A DNA stretch of 55,610 nt. Origin: a virus. Lineage: Duplodnaviria; Caudoviricetes. The stretch spans positions 1-55,610 of the IMG/VR virus record IMGVR_UViG_3300032069_000013, one strand, 5' to 3'. Shown here piece after piece: positions 10,882 to 55,610 of this stretch. Position numbers and translations under genes: made by a program. Each line of letters starts with the position of its first letter. The first letter of the stretch is position 1. The notes under the pieces are model-generated. The model was not told the origin of the DNA. It searched no databases and saw nothing but the letters and a program-made list of their open reading frames with translations.

Positions 10882-10913
10882 AATTTTCCTAATTTAAACT
10901 AAAGGAGTGTTTT

Positions 10914-11237
10914 ATGAGTGTCAAAGCATTAAAATCCCAGTTAAGAGAGAAGGTAAAAGGTATATCTAATAGTGCATTAGATATACTGGCAAATTGTCTG
11001 GATGGCAAAAAACCAGTTGGTTCGGGAATGATGGATAAATTGATTCGTATCGTTTCACAGGGTATAAAAGTGGAACACATGGATCAATTAAAAGACCAAA
11101 ATGACCGTTCTTTTGCTCTTCGTCTATTACCGTATCTTCCGAAAGACAATAATGCAAGGAAGAATTATATCATGTTGTCAAATCCTTCGTTAAAACCTTT
11201 ACTGGAAGATAAACCGAGAAAGGAAAAAACGGAATAA
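10914..11237 (+). CDS. Hypothetical protein directly upstream of AGC/NN array 1
   Basis: 107 aa, AAAGGAG RBS within the taaactaaaggag leader. Confidence 0.75.
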   Translation: MSVKALKSQLREKVKGISNSALDILANCLDGKKPVGSGMMDKLIRIVSQGIKVEHMDQLKDQNDRSFALRLLPYLPKDNNARKNYIMLSNPSLKPLLEDKPRKEKTE

Positions 11238-11238
11238 A

Positions 11239-11337
11239 AAACTAAATAAATATATTCACAGCAAAGCTGAGCACAGCGAAGCAAAGCTGAGCGTAGCAAA
11301 GCAAAGCATAGCAAAGCAATGTATCTTAAATCTTAAA
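11239..11337 (+). ncRNA. AGC/NN pentamer array 1 (12 AGC units, 11260-11317) with conserved flanks; candidate guide RNA
   Basis: ac-AGC-aa-AGC-tg-AGC-ac-AGC-ga-AGC-aa-AGC-tg-AGC-gt-AGC-aa-AGC-aa-AGC-at-AGC-aa-AGC; flanks aaactaaataaatatattc and aatgtatcttaaatcttaaa identical to array 2. The repeat is certain; the RNA status is inferred. Confidence 0.65.
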
Positions 11338-11353
11338 CTAAAGGAATAGTATT

Positions 11354-11923
11354 ATGAAAACTTCAAAGATAAATGTTACTTTACAAGGGATAGCGCCTAT
11401 ATTGTTCAATAGATTTGTGGATTACTCGAAAGAAGTCAGACCGCCGGAGCAGAAATTATATATAGATAGTCAAAATACGATTGTATTGCCGTCTCTGAAT
11501 ATAGATGCGTTTTTGTTCGGAGAGTTTCCTACCGGATGCGCGAAGACTTTCGAAGGTAAAAAGGGAAAGGATTATCTGAGGATAGGTCAAAGTCATGTTT
11601 TCGTGGAACCTGATTTGATTCCATTTACAGATGGGAAGAAGGAAATAAAATATAACGGGTTCGGTAAACAGTTGATGCTGCATGATTGGGGTTCTCCGAG
11701 AGTGAAGAATGGTTCTCTGAGCGTAAAACAGGAAAGGATTGTAAGACCTATGCTCAATCTGCCGTGGGAATTGACATTCTCTATTAATCTGATTGAGAAT
11801 AGTCTTATAAATTCAACCAAGCTGGAAAACTGGTTTACTCTGGGAGGAATCATGCTGGCTTTCGGATCATGGAGGCCGAAATATGGCAGATTTACAATAA
11901 AGAAATGGGAAGAAACTAAATAA
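11354..11923 (+). CDS. Stand-alone RAMP / Cas7-like protein (candidate effector of the AGC/NN arrays)
   Basis: 189 aa; N-terminal strand INVTLQGIAPILFN, IVLPSLNI, central RP..PWELTFSI strand, C-terminal glycine-rich loop GGIMLAFGSWRPKYGRF, all typical of the RAMP RRM fold. Confidence 0.7.
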   Translation: MKTSKINVTLQGIAPILFNRFVDYSKEVRPPEQKLYIDSQNTIVLPSLNIDAFLFGEFPTGCAKTFEGKKGKDYLRIGQSHVFVEPDLIPFTDGKKEIKYNGFGKQLMLHDWGSPRVKNGSLSVKQERIVRPMLNLPWELTFSINLIENSLINSTKLENWFTLGGIMLAFGSWRPKYGRFTIKKWEETK

Positions 11924-12021
11924 ATATATTCGCAGCGTAGCTTAGCCGAGCACAGCCGAGCAGAGCACAGCCAAGCGGAGCATAGCATAGCGAAGCAGAG
12001 CAATGTATCTTAAATCTTAAA
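11913..12021 (+). ncRNA. AGC/NN pentamer array 2 (14 AGC units, 11934-12001) with conserved flanks; candidate guide RNA
   Basis: gc-AGC-gt-AGC-tt-AGC-cg-AGC-ac-AGC-cg-AGC-ag-AGC-ac-AGC-ca-AGC-gg-AGC-at-AGC-at-AGC-ga-AGC-ag-AGC; same flanks as array 1. Confidence 0.65.
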
Positions 12022-12043
12022 TCTTAAACTAAAGGAGTAGCAT

Positions 12044-12718
12044 ATGCTAGAAGCAAAATTAGTCAAAATGTCTGCCCTCAAACTATGGGAAAACAACCCG
12101 CGAAGGAATGAAACCAACATAGAAAAGTTAACGCACATTTTAGCAGTGCATGGTCAACGATCACCGATAATCGTTGATTTGAAGACGAATGTCATTTACA
12201 AGGGAAATGCAACGTACAAAGCGATTACCCTGTTACATGACGGAGGAATAGAAAATTTCTTGACGGAAGAAGACAAGAAATTAATAAAAGGAAACGCTTT
12301 AATATCAACTTTTCATGCCGACGTCCGTAAGGGAATGATATGGGCTTCTTTCCAGAGTTTTCCGTCTGAAGCTGCCGCGATAGCGTATGGAATTTCCGAT
12401 AATGCAGCTTCGGAATGGTCTGAATGGGACAGGGATTTATTGACAAAAATGTTATCGGCGGAGCCAGTCGAGTACAAAACTTTATCCGGATTTACTGAAA
12501 AAGAACTGGATTTTTTCAAGGAAAAATTTAAAAAACAAACTACCGAACCGGACAATAAAGACCCGAAATATAAGGTCGTAATTTCGGTACCGGATGCTAT
12601 GACTTTTGAAAGTTTTGAGGAGATTTTTAATAAAGAGGTTTCTTCAGGGTTTGTTTTGAAGTTGGACTCGAAAGAATTTTTTGAGGTTTTTAATCGAGAA
12701 AAAAAGATGAAAAGTTGA
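12044..12718 (+). CDS. ParB/Srx N-terminal domain protein
   Basis: LKLWENNPRRN, HGQRSPIIVD..NVIYKGN, AYGISDN..SEWSEWD..LL. Confidence 0.75.
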   Translation: MLEAKLVKMSALKLWENNPRRNETNIEKLTHILAVHGQRSPIIVDLKTNVIYKGNATYKAITLLHDGGIENFLTEEDKKLIKGNALISTFHADVRKGMIWASFQSFPSEAAAIAYGISDNAASEWSEWDRDLLTKMLSAEPVEYKTLSGFTEKELDFFKEKFKKQTTEPDNKDPKYKVVISVPDAMTFESFEEIFNKEVSSGFVLKLDSKEFFEVFNREKKMKS

Positions 12719-12881
12719 CAAGATGTCACAAAAACCATTCTGTTTTTGGGGTAGTTTTTGATAAAAATTTTTATGATTTTTCGGTTTTAAGGGTTTTCTT
12801 GTCAAAAAGGAATTTTTAGTGTTGAATGAATGATTTTTTGTAACTAATTGAAAAGAAAAGAGATATGAGTTTACAAGAGAA

Positions 12882-13059
12882 AAATTGCTATATTTTTGCT
12901 ATAACCGGCACCCCTGTATATATGCCTATTTTTTTTTTCTTTCATGAAAGTATATGATTTTTTTTATCATATATTATATAATTAATGATAAGAAAAAGAA
13001 AAATAGTAAATGTATAGACCATATATACAGGGGTGCCGGGTATAGCACTTTTATAGCAT
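12882..13059. repeat. Inverted-repeat element B (28-bp arms 12897-12924 / 13020-13047, one mismatch), related to element A
   Basis: 12882-12933 is the exact reverse complement of 1931-1982; 13020-13059 is the reverse complement of 1827-1866 with one mismatch. Confidence 0.95.
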
Positions 13060-13132
13060 TTTTCAGCATTTTTTAAAAAAATGTAGTATATTTAGTGTAT
13101 AACAGTTTTATAGCATTTTAAGGAGATAAAAG

Positions 13133-15718: not shown

Positions 15719-16162
15719 ATGAAAATCGAAAAAATTGACATAGGAAAACTGAAAAGAAATCCCGACAATCCTCGGATAATCAAAGACGAGAATTTCAAGA
15801 AACTGGTGAACAGTATCAAGAAATTTCCGAAAATGCTTGAAATCAGACCGATAGTCATTGATGATAAAGGAATGATCCTGGGAGGAGATAAACGGTATCT
15901 GGCTTGCAAAGAACTGAAATTGAAACAAGTACCGGTTATCTGTGCATCGGCTCTTTCTCCAGCGGAGAAGGAAGAATTTATTGTCAAGGATAATTTATTT
16001 TCGGGTGAGTGGGATTGGACAAAACTTTCGGGATGGGATACTAAGAAATTGGCTGAATGGGGATTTGAGGAATGGATGTTTAATGAGGGTGAAAAGTCAC
16101 TTGCAGTCAATAAAGAGAAAGAAATAAAAAAATGTCCTAAATGTGGATATGTTTTGAAATGA
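15719..16162 (+). CDS. ParB-like nuclease domain protein
   Basis: LKRNPDNPRII..ENFKKLVNSI, RPIVID..MILGG..RYLAC, IVKDN..GEWD; C-terminal CPKCG. Confidence 0.85.
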   Translation: MKIEKIDIGKLKRNPDNPRIIKDENFKKLVNSIKKFPKMLEIRPIVIDDKGMILGGDKRYLACKELKLKQVPVICASALSPAEKEEFIVKDNLFSGEWDWTKLSGWDTKKLAEWGFEEWMFNEGEKSLAVNKEKEIKKCPKCGYVLK

Positions 16163-17067
16163 AACTAGAATTAAAAACCTGTGTATATTGTAAACAATCT
16201 TTGCCGATAAATTTCTTTAATCGAAATCGGCTTCCTGGATTACGGTGGGCTTGGTGTAAAGAATGTGAGAAAAAGTATAATTTTTACGAGAACAGAAAAG
16301 GAAAAGAATTTTCTCATATACTCAGTTTCTCTGGCGGAAAAGATTCTACTGCAATGCTTCTGCTCATGCTCGAAAAGAAAATGAGGATAGATGCAGTTGT
16401 TTATTTTGATTGCGGCTCTTTTGAGTTTCCTCAGATGGCCGAGCACATCGAACAGGTAGAAAAATATACGGGAATGGAAATAATTAAAATAAAACCGGAA
16501 CATGACTTTGGCTGGTTACTGAGTAATAATCCTAATCCTGGTTCAAAGAAACAGGAAAATGGTTGGCCGACATCCTTGATGCGTTGGTGTACTATGATGA
16601 AAATAAATGGTATCAGGCGTTATATGCGTTTATATAGGCCATATTACCTGTATATCGGATATACTGTGGACGAAGTTGAAAGAATAAATAAGGCAGCGGA
16701 TCATAGCCATAATTTAATATTCAGCCATAAACAGATAAATAAATATCCACTCTATGACTGGAATTTGTCTGAAAAAGATTGTTTAAATTACTGTTTTAAA
16801 AAGGGTTTTCATTGGAATGGATTGTATAAACATTTTAATAGAGTGAGTTGTTTCTGTTGTCCTTTACAAAGAAAAGAAGACCTAAAAAAGTTATATAAAT
16901 ACTATCCAGAATTATACAATCAAATTAAAGAATGGAATAAATTAACCTGGAATCATTTTAAGAATGATCCGGACATTTTTAATAAAATAGAATCGGAGAT
17001 CAGGTATGGCAAAGATTTCACGAGAAGTATATGTAGAAGCAAAAAATCAGAAACTACCATTAAGTAA
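16159..17067 (+). CDS. PAPS reductase-family (PP-loop) protein
   Basis: SFSGGKDSTAM, RWCT..KI, YIGYT.DE..R, YPL.DW, RVSCFCCP; start moved to ATG 16159 (ATGA overlap). Confidence 0.85.
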   Translation: MKLELKTCVYCKQSLPINFFNRNRLPGLRWAWCKECEKKYNFYENRKGKEFSHILSFSGGKDSTAMLLLMLEKKMRIDAVVYFDCGSFEFPQMAEHIEQVEKYTGMEIIKIKPEHDFGWLLSNNPNPGSKKQENGWPTSLMRWCTMMKINGIRRYMRLYRPYYLYIGYTVDEVERINKAADHSHNLIFSHKQINKYPLYDWNLSEKDCLNYCFKKGFHWNGLYKHFNRVSCFCCPLQRKEDLKKLYKYYPELYNQIKEWNKLTWNHFKNDPDIFNKIESEIRYGKDFTRSICRSKKSETTIK

Positions 17068-27800: not shown

Positions 27801-28539
27801 TGCTTTTTATAAAGAAGTTATTGATGTATTTAAAAATCCTCACCCGTGGGCACATATACGCTATGGTGACGGAGAAGGGATCGTATTAAGTTATCCCGAA
27901 TTTACTAGCAAGCAGAAAAGCGAATCTCGCTGGAAAAAATGGCTCGGAACGGTTCCTTCGGATATGTCTTTTCTTGCAGAGAAAATAAGAGAAAGTATAA
28001 GATACGCTGATATAGTCGGACTTCCCTGCAAAAGACATCAAAATGTAAATCAAGACTGGAGAAACGTAAAGAAATTCATAATATCCAATTATAAACTGCT
28101 TTCCAGCGATAGAAAGGTCTGCTGCATGGATTGGACTGTAGATTTACAACGTAATAATCTATACGATAATCTTTTGAATAATAAGAAAAAGATTTATTAT
28201 GTCTCTTCCAGGGATATGACTTCAATTTTTAAAAATAGATTCAAGATAAAAAATGTAATTGGATTTCATCTTTCTTTACAGCATAATCCAAAAATAGGAG
28301 AAAGTTTGACTGACATTCCTCATTATCCTGTTATGTATAATCAGATCATTAATTTTATCAATACACAAGATATTAAAAATCAGATATTTCTTATAGGAGC
28401 GGGAGGATTAGGAAAAATTTATTGCATGGAAGTGAAAAAGGCCGGGGGCATAGCTTTAGATATTGGTTCTTTGTTTGATGGCTGGAAAGGATATGTAACT
28501 CGATCATATCTAAAAGACGGGCATAATTACAAATTATGA
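27781..28539 (+). CDS. GT-D fold (DUF1792-like) glycosyltransferase
   Basis: IRYGDGEG, LIGAGGLGKIYC, GIALDIGSLFD. Confidence 0.75.
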   Translation: MIEVSFDAFYKEVIDVFKNPHPWAHIRYGDGEGIVLSYPEFTSKQKSESRWKKWLGTVPSDMSFLAEKIRESIRYADIVGLPCKRHQNVNQDWRNVKKFIISNYKLLSSDRKVCCMDWTVDLQRNNLYDNLLNNKKKIYYVSSRDMTSIFKNRFKIKNVIGFHLSLQHNPKIGESLTDIPHYPVMYNQIINFINTQDIKNQIFLIGAGGLGKIYCMEVKKAGGIALDIGSLFDGWKGYVTRSYLKDGHNYKL

Positions 28540-29291
28540 ATACGGTTGATATAAAAACAATCGAATATAAATTGATTGAAGTATTGAAAAATGAAAATCC
28601 TTTTTCTTTACTACGTCTTGGAGACGGAGAGTTTCAGATTCTTAAATATCCTAAATACATAAGTAAAGAAAATTTTTATGATAGATTTGAACGCTGGTTT
28701 GATATATCCGATATAAGTTATCAGGAACTTTTCAATATAAGAAATAGTTTGAACTCGTCTTATTTGCGAGCAAATATTCTCGGTATTCCTTCTCCGGCGG
28801 AACAACGAGGATATTCTAAATGGGTCAATTTCGATAAGTTGATGAATGAGTTTTCTTTACTTGAAGATAAAATCTATTTTGCTAACTATGATATTTGTAA
28901 ATTGAATTTTAAAAGGTTACTGTCTTATGTAAAGAAAATATTTATTATTACTTGTCATGATCTGAGAAAGCAGATAAAAAATACCTTTAATTTAAAAGAC
29001 GTATATTTACTGCAATGTCCACGAGAAAAATTTAATTATCATGACAAGAACTGGAAAAATAAAAATAATACGGTAAATCATTATCATGAGAAATTTACTA
29101 GTATAAATAAATCAATACAAGAAAATATTGAAAGAGGTTCTTTATATCTGGTAGGTGCCGGAGGTTTAGGAAAAATATATTGTAATACAATTAAGAATTG
29201 TCAAGGCATTGCTTTAGATATAGGTTCGGTATTCGATGCTTGGGCAGGTATAGATAGCAGACCGTATTTAAAAAGTATAGCGAAATTATAA
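28536..29291 (+). CDS. GT-D fold glycosyltransferase, paralog of the upstream gene
   Basis: LRLGDGEF, LVGAGGLGKIYC, GIALDIGSVFD. Confidence 0.75.
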   Translation: MNTVDIKTIEYKLIEVLKNENPFSLLRLGDGEFQILKYPKYISKENFYDRFERWFDISDISYQELFNIRNSLNSSYLRANILGIPSPAEQRGYSKWVNFDKLMNEFSLLEDKIYFANYDICKLNFKRLLSYVKKIFIITCHDLRKQIKNTFNLKDVYLLQCPREKFNYHDKNWKNKNNTVNHYHEKFTSINKSIQENIERGSLYLVGAGGLGKIYCNTIKNCQGIALDIGSVFDAWAGIDSRPYLKSIAKL

Positions 29292-53263: not shown

Positions 53264-53299
53264 AAGAAAACAACATAAACCTAAACAGAGGAGTGAGTT

Positions 53300-53767
53300 A
53301 TGAAAATTACACAGTATCAGTTATTAAAATCAGGTGTTGACAAATGGAACACCTGGAGAAAAGAAAACCCCGGTGTTAAGATTGACCTGACAGATGCTGA
53401 CTTGACACGTGCTAACCTATCACACGCTGACCTGACAGATGCTGACCTGACACGTGCTAACCTACCATACGCTGACCTGACACGTGCTAACCTGACACGT
53501 GCTAACCTGATAGATGCTAACCTGGCATGTACTAACCTGACACGTGCTGACCTGACACGTGCTGACCTGTCATGTACTAACCTGACATATGCTAACCTGA
53601 TAGATGCTAATCTGACAGATGCTAACCTGACACGTGCTAACCTGACAGATGCTGACTTGACACGTGCTAATCTGACAGATGCTAACCTGACACGTGCTAA
53701 CCTATCACACGCTGACCTGACAGATGCTAACCTGTCACACGCTAACCTGACAGATGCGCTACTTTAA
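53300..53767 (+). CDS. Pentapeptide-repeat protein
   Basis: LLKSGVDKWNTWRKENP cap followed by ~25 A[DN]Lxx repeats. Confidence 0.9.
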   Translation: MKITQYQLLKSGVDKWNTWRKENPGVKIDLTDADLTRANLSHADLTDADLTRANLPYADLTRANLTRANLIDANLACTNLTRADLTRADLSCTNLTYANLIDANLTDANLTRANLTDADLTRANLTDANLTRANLSHADLTDANLSHANLTDALL

Positions 53768-54453: not shown

Positions 54454-55416
54454 ATGACCCCCAAACAATTTTTAGAGCAAAAATCAACAAAATTAGAACG
54501 GTTGGCAGGAACTCGCGGAATAATTGAAAAACGCGAACGACTGCAAAAATTAATACGGTACCACGCCCAATATACTGGCAGGATGTACCCGATTAATTAT
54601 CATCTGGCAGAAAAAAAACGGGTAGAGGATAAATTGTATACAGAGTATTGCCGGACAAAAAAACTGGCAGCAATCAATGATCCGTTAACGTGGAGACGAG
54701 GAAAATACGGTGAGTTTATCATGGGAAAAGGGCTGCCGACATATGGCCGTTTTGAGCAATTGTATATTGATCGATACAACAAATTACTACAGGCCGAAAA
54801 AAGTATCCTCAACGATCTGCGAAAAAATGCAGATGAACACGGATGGATGGAACGGAGATCATGGGAAAAGGGCCGTGGTGAAGAACTTTCGATTGATCTG
54901 TATGGTGCGGATTTTGATAAAAATCTGTATGTTGTGCAGGTTAGGCAAGCCAGCCGTGCGCGCACTAGTTACTGGTTGGAGGTGCGTAAATCCTATTTTT
55001 TGATCGGCAGAAACGAAAACGGACTCGCATTTGCACATTGCATTAATGGAGCAGGAGTCCGGGCAGCAATCAGACAAGAAACAGAGGCCAAACCAGAAAC
55101 AGCGGTAAATGCTGCATTAAAATGGATATGGAGTACGGATAGATATACGGAGATTGTACGTCAGGGCGATATCGGATTATTACCCGTAAAATTAAAACCA
55201 GCAATAAAACCTATTGGTGCGCATGTGATAATGGTAGTAGATGCTCATCAATTGTGGAGTGGGGAAATCAGGAAAAATGGTAAATTATTTGCCAAAAATC
55301 CTTATCTCCATCATGTTAAAAAACAGCATCCAGACGTTAAATGCAATGGATGGTATCAGGTAATTGTCGGAAAGAGAGAACTGCCCTGGAGTTTTGCTCC
55401 AGCAACAAAAGACTAG
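54454..55416 (+). CDS. Hypothetical early protein with RQGD motif
   Basis: 320 aa; IVRQGDIGLLPV...H...LHH..QHP; taaacctaaactaaagga leader. Confidence 0.75.
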   Translation: MTPKQFLEQKSTKLERLAGTRGIIEKRERLQKLIRYHAQYTGRMYPINYHLAEKKRVEDKLYTEYCRTKKLAAINDPLTWRRGKYGEFIMGKGLPTYGRFEQLYIDRYNKLLQAEKSILNDLRKNADEHGWMERRSWEKGRGEELSIDLYGADFDKNLYVVQVRQASRARTSYWLEVRKSYFLIGRNENGLAFAHCINGAGVRAAIRQETEAKPETAVNAALKWIWSTDRYTEIVRQGDIGLLPVKLKPAIKPIGAHVIMVVDAHQLWSGEIRKNGKLFAKNPYLHHVKKQHPDVKCNGWYQVIVGKRELPWSFAPATKD

Positions 55417-55507: not shown

Positions 55508-55610
55508 TAAACCTAAACAGAGGAGTGAGTTATGAAAATTACACAGTATCAGTTATTAAAATCAGGTGTTGACAAATGGAACACCTGGAGAAAAGAAAAC
55601 CCCGGTGTTA
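55508..55610 (+). repeat. 103-bp exact copy of 53276-53378 (leader + 5' end of the pentapeptide gene)
   Basis: taaacctaaacagaggagtgagttatgaaaattacacag...cccggtgtta is identical at both places. Confidence 0.9.
55532..55610 (+). CDS. Pentapeptide-repeat protein, 5' part (joins 1-293)
   Basis: MKITQYQLLKSGVDKWNTWRKENPGV, then ...gtt a|ac ctg... in frame across the junction. Confidence 0.8.
   Translation, partial: MKITQYQLLKSGVDKWNTWRKENPGV

Follow-up and report, generated by a model that had tools for sequence, protein, structure and literature searches.

Systems of the VIPR (Viral Interference Programmable Repeat) kind were described only in 2026, and they are of interest as very small programmable DNA binders and as a possible ancestor of CRISPR. 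According to the text of the discovery paper, Vipr is a minimal RAMP protein encoded mostly by phages, and its guides, the vrRNAs, are RNAs of ~100 nt composed of 9-16 YNNGG repeats and an invariant tail (10.64898/2026.04.26.720920). Each repeat is bound by one protomer, with the GGY flipped into the protein; in the protein of Escherichia phage SUSP1, G1 is contacted by H17 and by D177, the G-loop residue that hydrogen-bonds this base, G2 by R138 and W178, and Y3 by a pocket including R179 (10.64898/2026.04.26.720927). The NN pairs bind double-stranded DNA, and one target base is skipped per unit (10.64898/2026.04.26.720920, 10.64898/2026.04.26.720927). In nature, the systems are directed at satellites and rival phages, whose transcription is silenced by the binding; a locus usually consists of vipr and one accessory gene (vap), and an absence of self-targeting is reported (10.64898/2026.04.26.720920). 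Here we analyzed a locus of the virus record IMGVR_UViG_3300032069_000013 of IMG/VR (Duplodnaviria; Caudoviricetes), whose complete sequence of 55,610 bp is hereafter called the window. An earlier note on this DNA had proposed that a 189-aa gene and the two pentamer arrays bracketing it form a phage RNA-guided system.

The locus comprises a candidate vap, vrRNA 1, vipr, and vrRNA 2 (Table 1). With a probability of about 0.88, we regard it as a VIPR system located in the early/replication module of a 55.6-kb tailed phage. Of the VIPR-defining features that can be tested computationally, the RAMP fold, the homology to SUSP1 Vipr, the adjacent same-strand pentamer arrays, and the minimal viral locus with one accessory gene and no cas genes or CRISPR array were found, and the canonical GGY was not. 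As for transcription, filament formation, the targeting of DNA rather than RNA, the 1-nt skip rule, and the kind of target, we infer by homology with SUSP1 that this locus would behave as that system does.

Table 1. Features of the VIPR locus and the adjoining gene in the window.
Feature	Position	Strand	Description
Candidate vap (vipr-accessory) gene	10914..11237	+	107 aa, predicted all-helical; directly upstream of vrRNA 1
Conserved 5' flank, vrRNA 1	11239..11259	+	19-nt AT-rich box, then AC
vrRNA 1 repeat tract (array 1)	11260..11319	+	12 x AGC-NN; NN = AA TG AC GA AA TG GT AA AA AT AA AA
vrRNA 1 3' tail	11320..11345	+	TGT(ATCTTAA)x2 then ACTAAAGGA; common to array 2
vipr gene	11354..11923	+	189-aa RAMP (Cas7-like) protein, from profile comparison and structure model
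Conserved 5' flank, vrRNA 2	11913..11933	+	Overlaps the last codons and the stop of vipr
vrRNA 2 repeat tract (array 2)	11934..12003	+	14 x AGC-NN; NN = GT TT CG AC CG AG AC CA GG AT AT GA AG AA
vrRNA 2 3' tail	12004..12036	+	TGT(ATCTTAA)x3 then ACTAAAGGA
ParB-like gene	12044..12718	+	224 aa; phrog_620 ParB-like, 7e-20

By profile comparison and structure prediction, the 189-aa gene product is a Vipr protein of the RAMP/Cas7 fold. Neither this protein nor the 107-aa accessory protein matched Pfam at E <= 1, and the only PHROGs match of the 189-aa protein was the unnamed phrog_4652 (1.2e-10). A word-indexed search yielded 38 relatives with 33-68% identity, nearly all of them unnamed metagenomic proteins, and an exhaustive profile search yielded 1200 cluster representatives at E <= 1e-3, a number that fell to 280 at <= 1e-10 and to 125 at <= 1e-30. 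When a 34-member family profile was run against the PDB with hmmsearch, the single significant chain was 36pp_D, the 'SUSP1 Vipr protein' (E 9.8e-7), with profile positions 68-185 aligned to residues 80-190 of the chain. An alignment of the family with SUSP1 Vipr by hhalign gave a probability of 95.8% and an E value of 7.8e-9 over 120 columns, at an identity of ~20% between the window Vipr and the SUSP1 one. The resemblance to phage VIPR systems proposed in the earlier note is thus borne out by direct sequence-profile homology to an experimentally studied Vipr of a system in print. In the hhalign alignment, R131, S172, W173, and R174 of the window protein correspond to R138, D177, W178, and R179 of SUSP1, and S172 was placed opposite D177 by HMMER and hhalign alike. 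The counterpart of SUSP1 H17 is ambiguous (N19 by eye, F21 by MAFFT) and was not used as evidence. R131-P132 in the thumb and G171, R174, G178, and F180 in the G-loop are invariant in the family.

The AlphaFold2 model computed on the family alignment (predicted local distance difference test, pLDDT, 91.5; predicted TM score, pTM, 0.85) showed, besides a beta-alpha-beta core, a region of beta-hairpin spanning 108-134 and, ahead of the last strand, a loop (168-179). Foldseek comparison with the PDB gave 66 matches at E <= 0.001, and the top rows were Cmr4, Csm3, type VII Cas7, and Cas7-11 (top Cas7-type matches at E 4e-6 and below, TM 0.5-0.65), in agreement with the RAMP/Cas7 fold that the earlier note had predicted. 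The PDB library used by Foldseek ends at 8 April 2026, and no Vipr entry was among the rows listed. The model of the ESM Atlas itself had a pTM of 0.84, and its nearest clusters were viral hypothetical proteins, which we take as a lead only.

The two intergenic arrays were found as first described. The AGC was intact in 26 of the 26 units, with neither substitution nor indel. A five-unit AGCNN pattern matched the window 18 times, each time within the two arrays, and matched none of 100 dinucleotide-preserving shuffles of the window. The intervening dinucleotides do differ between the arrays, since only 7 of 24 bases agreed when the arrays were aligned, which is about random. A period of 5 cannot be coding, and the minus-strand open reading frames (ORFs) over the arrays are by-products of the repeat. 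Of the shared flanks that the earlier note had given as 19 and 20 nt, the 5' box, AAACTAAATAAATATATTC, is identical at 11239-11257 and 11913-11931 and has no other mismatch-free copy in the window; the 3' length was roughly right, as 18 nt are identical after the last unit, or ~26 nt if the extra ATCTTAA copy in array 2 is treated as an indel. Rfam had no family at the gathering score over the whole window.

The association of array and gene was further examined in 81 related loci (14 viral, 65 metagenomic, and 2 genomic). Of these 81, 6 encode a duplicate full-length protein, and one contig was entered from either end; the 2 genomic loci include a prophage-like site on the chromosome of an Aminicenantes metagenome-assembled genome (MAG). 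With a detector that required 6 or more consecutive pentamers starting with [AG]G[CT], 77 of the 81 loci had [AG]G[CT]-NN arrays beside the vipr homolog and on the same strand, in agreement with the expectation that homologs adjoin arrays with a 5-nt period. The four array-less loci (L028, L030, L035, and L070) lie on contigs of <= 3.3 kb with vipr near or at the contig end. Opposite-strand arrays were limited to 4 short ones (7-8 units) in the 81 loci. In the non-duplicate loci, there were 181 arrays of at least 8 units (median 14, range 8-25), and their 2505 handles included 1547 GGC, 718 AGC, 108 GGT, and 62 AGT. No viral locus was found for a more distant subfamily (P0036).

All 16 dinucleotides were used at the NN positions of the relatives' arrays. 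In pairs of loci with 97-99% identical Vipr, the NN identity was 0.45-0.56 in most arrays, and the handle identity was 0.83-1.0. For example, L022 and L025, whose Vipr proteins are 99% identical, have one of four arrays in common (NN identity 0.89), and the other arrays had an NN identity of 0.46-0.56 and a handle identity of 0.88-0.92. Four more close pairs displayed the same guide turnover.

Some relatives differ in the arrangement of their arrays. In L046 (2572-2979) and L051 (2137-2487), vipr is preceded by four or five head-to-tail AGC-NN arrays with just a short linker between successive ones (ACTTTTAAT and 3-9 additional nt), a multi-guide form without long tails. In L081, a Spirochaetes MAG contig, a tRNA-like acceptor/T-arm minihelix (GGTTCGAnTCC, then a 3' acceptor strand) precedes each GGC-NN array (300-362 and 1335-1395), as also seen in L073 at ~420-446. 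ARAGORN reported no tRNA at the L081 minihelices and called none in six related loci. By analogy with published ribozyme-interspersed arrays, RNase P or RNase Z could free the 5' end of the guide at L081. A cultured representative, Burkholderia phage vB_E436 (PQ789831.1; L083), has one array of 15 GG[CA]-NN units (1354-1428) directly upstream of a vipr homolog with 27% identity and a 451-aa gene directly downstream; this phage is a possible laboratory model for a distant branch.

The vipr gene had been called stand-alone, which is not strictly right, as a conserved 107-aa partner lies just upstream. By sequence comparison, this gene is a conserved accessory gene of the locus. Its relatives were detected by tblastn in 33 of the 81 loci, many of whose contigs are too short to show one, and each of them was on the same strand as vipr and immediately upstream or downstream of it, at a distance of 86-468 nt. 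The AlphaFold model (pLDDT 86) had helices at 3-29, 37-70, 79-89, and 91-97. The protein belonged to no Pfam, PHROG, or PADLOC family and received no lead from the ESM Atlas; its PDB sequence matches were at E 0.06 or worse and its fold matches at E 1.5 or worse. It was not similar to SUSP1 vap1 (hhalign probability 0.5%). The ParB-like gene on the other side of the locus was considered as an accessory gene and rejected, since a relative was present in 0 of the 81 related loci; it is therefore not counted as part of the system and is probably a neighbour outside it.

The closest described system for comparison was that of SUSP1 (type II; Vipr, vrRNA, and vap1; PDB 36pp), whose vipr we located in GenBank KT454805.2 at 28474-29061 on the minus strand. 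Both are phage-encoded, lack cas genes and a self-target, and have a RAMP of ~190 aa with a small accessory gene next to it; the thumb (RP) and the G-loop (G-x-W-R-P-x-x-G-R-F) of the two RAMPs are homologous. In both, pentamer arrays on the vipr strand lie in the flanking intergenic regions, with 10-15 units detected in SUSP1 and 12 and 14 in the window. The array detector found four GGY-NN arrays by the SUSP1 vipr, one upstream and three downstream, as the discovery paper describes, whereas the window has one guide on each side. The handle is AGC in the window and GGY, mostly GGT, in SUSP1, and the residue at the G1-reading position is S172 here, D177 in SUSP1, and T in the GGC-type relatives. 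The 107-aa accessory protein, helical in its model, is unrelated to the 146-aa vap1.

Since the discovery paper gives GGY/NN 'or a related consensus' for all types and lists NNNGG, YNNNG, and NNNNG repeats in its text (10.64898/2026.04.26.720920), a handle of AGC instead of GGY is compatible with membership in VIPR, and the window unit written as C-NN-AG formally fits the class YNNNG. Furthermore, 21 clusters with GAC/NN, CAC/NN, WGT/NN, or TGH/NN beside Vipr-like folds have been described (10.64898/2026.10.21.760802). As far as the text of these sources goes, the alternative-repeat VIPRs share with the window the pentamer period, the Vipr-like neighbour, and a fixed part other than GGY. VIPR and non-canonical repeats are already in print. 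AGC or AGY as a natural handle was not found in the searched text of the VIPR papers, where the sole mention is the SUSP1 mutant GGY>AGY in the legend of fig. S12; their figures or supplements may show AGC/NN. With the same limit to the text, the 107-aa accessory family is likewise not described there, nor is repeated switching between G and A inside a single family or the connection of this switching with the residue equivalent to D177.

To compare handles with pocket residues, we used 61 distinct full-length proteins, including that of the window. Twelve were of the AGC type (>= 92% of units with A as the first handle base), 38 of the GGC type (A in <= 12% of units), and 9 mixed (16-42% A), and 2 had no array on the contig. 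Therefore, AGC is a recurrent state inside a mainly GGC-type family and is not unique to the window phage: the distinct variant that had been supposed does depart from GGY, but it recurs in 12 of the 61 members. The column that best separated the types was position 172, with T in 37 of the 38 GGC types and S in one (L062); in the 12 AGC types, the residue was N nine times, A twice, and S once, in the window. The second-best column was position 129, two residues before thumb R131, where K or R occurred in 38/38 GGC types versus 3/12 AGC types. At position 19, D occurred in 38/38 GGC types versus 7/12 AGC types (N in 4, H in 1). The closest relative of the window protein, its sister L015 (68% identity, branch support 100/98), has GGC in 26 of 26 units and reads GTWRP where the window reads GSWRP.

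The nine mixed loci (L003, L016, L026, L032, L036, L037, L052, L065, and L067) contain 16-42% AGC/AGT among GGC/GGT and have T (8 loci) or S (1 locus) at position 172. GGC-type proteins thus seem to tolerate a minority of AGC units. The AGC-type loci hold almost no GGC, suggesting that A is tolerated one-sidedly. In addition, 148 listed cluster representatives were available without genomic context, and 97 of them have a recognisable G-loop, in which the residue was T in 62, N in 14, A in 11, S in 8, C in 1, and V in 1. At the thumb -2 position of these listed representatives, 46 of the 52 scorable sequences with T had K/R, and 10 of the 13 with N had a non-basic residue.

When the AGC state was placed on a maximum-likelihood tree computed with the three trait columns removed, 9 changes were required (bootstrap range 8-10), and well-supported branches force at least 4 of them. 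We propose that the AGC handle is a retuned version of the GGC handle usual in the family, and the comparison of the 61 relatives singles out the counterpart of SUSP1 D177 as the candidate G/A switch at the first handle base. Two findings limit this reading. In the independent-pair test for position 172, all 4 pairs on supported branches agreed in direction (p 0.125), so with only 4 independent pairs the association of handle and residue is consistent and not statistically secured; moreover, S172 also occurs in the purely GGC-type locus L062.

A broader idea, which we consider tentative and rather unlikely, is that the fixed trinucleotide of VIPR guides acts as a 'lock' that can evolve, being determined by one or two residues of the pocket and flipped repeatedly by phages, which would make a Vipr orthogonal to the guides of its rivals. 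The pattern in the family that corresponds to it is T172 and K/R129 with GGC, as against N, A, or S172 and no basic residue with AGC. Stand-alone vrRNAs of satellites are reported, in the text of a later paper, to hijack phage Vipr and send it to decoys (10.64898/2026.10.15.759431). If the idea is true, switching the handle would let a phage escape this hijacking directly, AGC- and GGC-type systems would be a natural pair of orthogonal, co-usable VIPR tools, and the window and its 68% identical sister L015 would be a minimal pair. The finding leaves knowledge of the kind of system unchanged; its contribution is a clean case from nature of a guide whose protein-held part is AGC, not GGY, and it suggests a route to orthogonal VIPR pairs.

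By homology with SUSP1, the following mechanism would apply. Transcription of both tracts together with vipr would yield RNAs of ~100 nt. Each pentamer would be bound by one Vipr protomer, and the protomers would form a helical filament in which the AGC bases are flipped into protein pockets. The A would enter the pocket that holds G1 in SUSP1, lined here by S172; the G would lie between thumb R131 and G-loop W173; and the C would enter the pyrimidine pocket including R174. The NN would stay accessible for pairing with double-stranded DNA, skipping one target base at every unit, so that guide 1 may specify 24 bases over ~36 bp and guide 2 may specify 28 bases over ~42 bp. The gene silenced by such binding would belong to a competing phage, satellite, or prophage.

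Several results weigh against the VIPR assignment, beginning with the RNA itself. Neither tail had a stable predicted fold (vrRNA 1, -1.0 kcal/mol, z +0.68; vrRNA 2, -0.7 kcal/mol, z +1.58), and the short, AT-rich tails of the window differ in this from those of the SUSP1 clade, which carry a pseudoknot. The final 11 nt of each tail are AAACTAAAGGA, a ribosome-binding context. Exact copies at 10896, 11335, 12026, and 54436 precede vap, vipr, the ParB-like gene, and an ORF at 54454, each 18 nt ahead of the start codon, and with <= 1 mismatch there were 8 matches in the window versus 3.0 expected. Since AAACTAAAGGA also precedes other genes, part of the shared 3' flank is ribosome-binding context. 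A scan for sigma-70-like promoters and terminators found nothing adjoining the arrays, including in the 19-nt box, and the sole sequencing run listed with the locus is a DNA run of a sediment metagenome, which may be its source. We infer that the arrays are either co-transcribed with vap and vipr and then processed, or transcribed from an unrecognised promoter in the 19-nt box.

Searches for targets were also negative. Exact 10-unit matching with a 1-nt skip against viral contigs gave 0 matches for guide 1 (units 1-10 and 3-12) and 0 for guide 2 (units 1-10, 5-14, and 3-12), a procedure that misses imperfect targets. When 179 guides of the relatives were compared with the window at >= 0.8, there was no excess for the 1-nt skip (5 matches, versus 6, 6, and 5 for the 0-, 2-, and 3-nt controls). 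One 16-unit guide of the AGC-type locus L080 (CP070825.1), with <= 3 mismatches allowed, matched neither its own genome (0/1) nor the genomes of its host phylum (0/401). These failures are expected for an uncultured sediment phage, since exact scans miss imperfect targets and most competitors are unsampled. A scan of the window for self-targets with 0-3 skipped bases gave best 1-nt-skip scores of 18/24 and 18/28, the same as in shuffles; this lack of a self-target fits the published behaviour of VIPR.

The target searches bear most directly on an alternative in which the locus is a VIPR-type ribonucleoprotein with another reading rule or substrate, such as a different skip length, an RNA target, or a 107-aa protein needed for target engagement. 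This is improbable, though the best of the alternatives. It would explain why no 1-nt-skip target appeared in the exact viral-contig scans or, with a relative's guide, in the 401 genomes, and it accords with the unstructured tail, the unrelated accessory gene, and the low identity to SUSP1 Vipr. The discovery paper likewise describes, in its text, seven types with different vap genes, some with nucleases (10.64898/2026.04.26.720920). However, the residues that set the geometry in SUSP1 are conserved (R131-P132, G171, W173, R174, P175, G178, R179, and F180), the pentamer period and the unit numbers are within the published range, and failed target searches are, as said, no surprise for such a phage.

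A far less probable alternative is that the arrays act as DNA, as iteron-like or parS-like repeats bound by a ParB-like protein or a primase-helicase. The locus does lie in the replication module and adjoins a ParB-like gene, and the missing promoter and terminator signals and the DNA origin of the only run would suit a DNA element. Nevertheless, the ParB-like gene is absent from 81 of 81 loci, whereas the arrays accompany vipr in 77 of them with strict strand polarity, and the NN turnover between near-identical loci misfits a fixed binding site. Moreover, the protein that the arrays accompany is homologous to the RNA-binding RAMP of SUSP1, with which pentamer RNAs were co-purified and for which they were sequenced, as the text of the discovery paper states (10.64898/2026.04.26.720920).

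It is just as improbable that this is a decaying or inactive VIPR locus in which G-to-A drift in the handle disabled loading: perturbing GGY abolished silencing in SUSP1, with GGY>AGY among the constructs listed for fig. S12 (10.64898/2026.04.26.720920), so A at the place of G1 is not neutral in every Vipr, which also counts against the VIPR assignment, but all 26 units are AGC with no other decay, the ORF is intact, the catalytically irrelevant but structurally key residues of the window Vipr are conserved, and 12 distinct lineages are uniformly AGC (fraction 0.92-1.0) with matching changes at position 172.

A class 1 (type III-like) CRISPR-Cas system was rejected. The window Vipr shares with the class 1 backbone proteins Csm3, Cmr4, type VII Cas7, and Cas7-11 the RRM core, the G-rich loop, and the thumb (Foldseek E 4e-6 to 5e-4), and with the Cas7 family in general the use of one subunit per fixed stretch of guide and periodic base flipping; of the type III-like features, the fold alone is shared. 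However, the identity is 9-14%, and the period is 6 nt in the Cas7 family versus 5 in VIPR, which sequesters three guide bases per unit, so that pairing is non-contiguous. There was no CRISPR array, Cas6, Cas5, large subunit, or adaptation gene. PADLOC found no Cas1/2/3/5/6/7/8 model at E <= 0.001 among the 71 ORFs, and no CRISPR-like repeats were present among the 20 largest direct-repeat families of the window, in accordance with the absence of cas genes and CRISPR arrays noted at the outset.

The window is the whole record, with 34% G+C and 68 of the 71 ORFs on the + strand; no tRNA genes were found in it. PHROGs named a helicase, a Sak4-like annealing protein, a DNA polymerase, a primase/helicase, a Gam-like protein, and a ParB-like nuclease, as well as a PAPS-reductase-like protein, a terminase, a portal, a major head protein, and tail proteins, and the VIPR locus sits in the early/replication module of this tailed phage. 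The nearest cultured phages are remote (portal identity <= 26%).

A palindrome of ~190 nt occurs in two copies (1817-1982 and 12875-13062), which bracket the replication module with the VIPR locus. The copies have 60-nt arms in common, at 86-88% identity (repeat families D7 and D14), and the segment 12860-13075 folded as DNA at -50.4 kcal/mol (z -13.9). They could be origins, terminators, or regulatory sites. At 15719-17067, another ORF with a ParB-like nuclease domain (147 aa), the second in the window, runs into the beginning of the PAPS-reductase-like ORF, which matched phrog_424 at 2.4e-45 and PADLOC SspD at 2.2e-23; the two may be a DNA-modification or anti-restriction pair.

A 15-nt tandem repeat (ACCTGACACATGCTA-like) at 53300-53767 encodes a pentapeptide-repeat protein with A[DN]LT[RDH] units. 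The last 103 nt of the record (55508-55610) are an exact repeat of 53276-53378, and its start (1-282) is inside a similar repeat. Since these repeats lie at both record ends, a second paralogous gene seems to span the ends, suggesting that the record is a circular or terminally redundant assembly.

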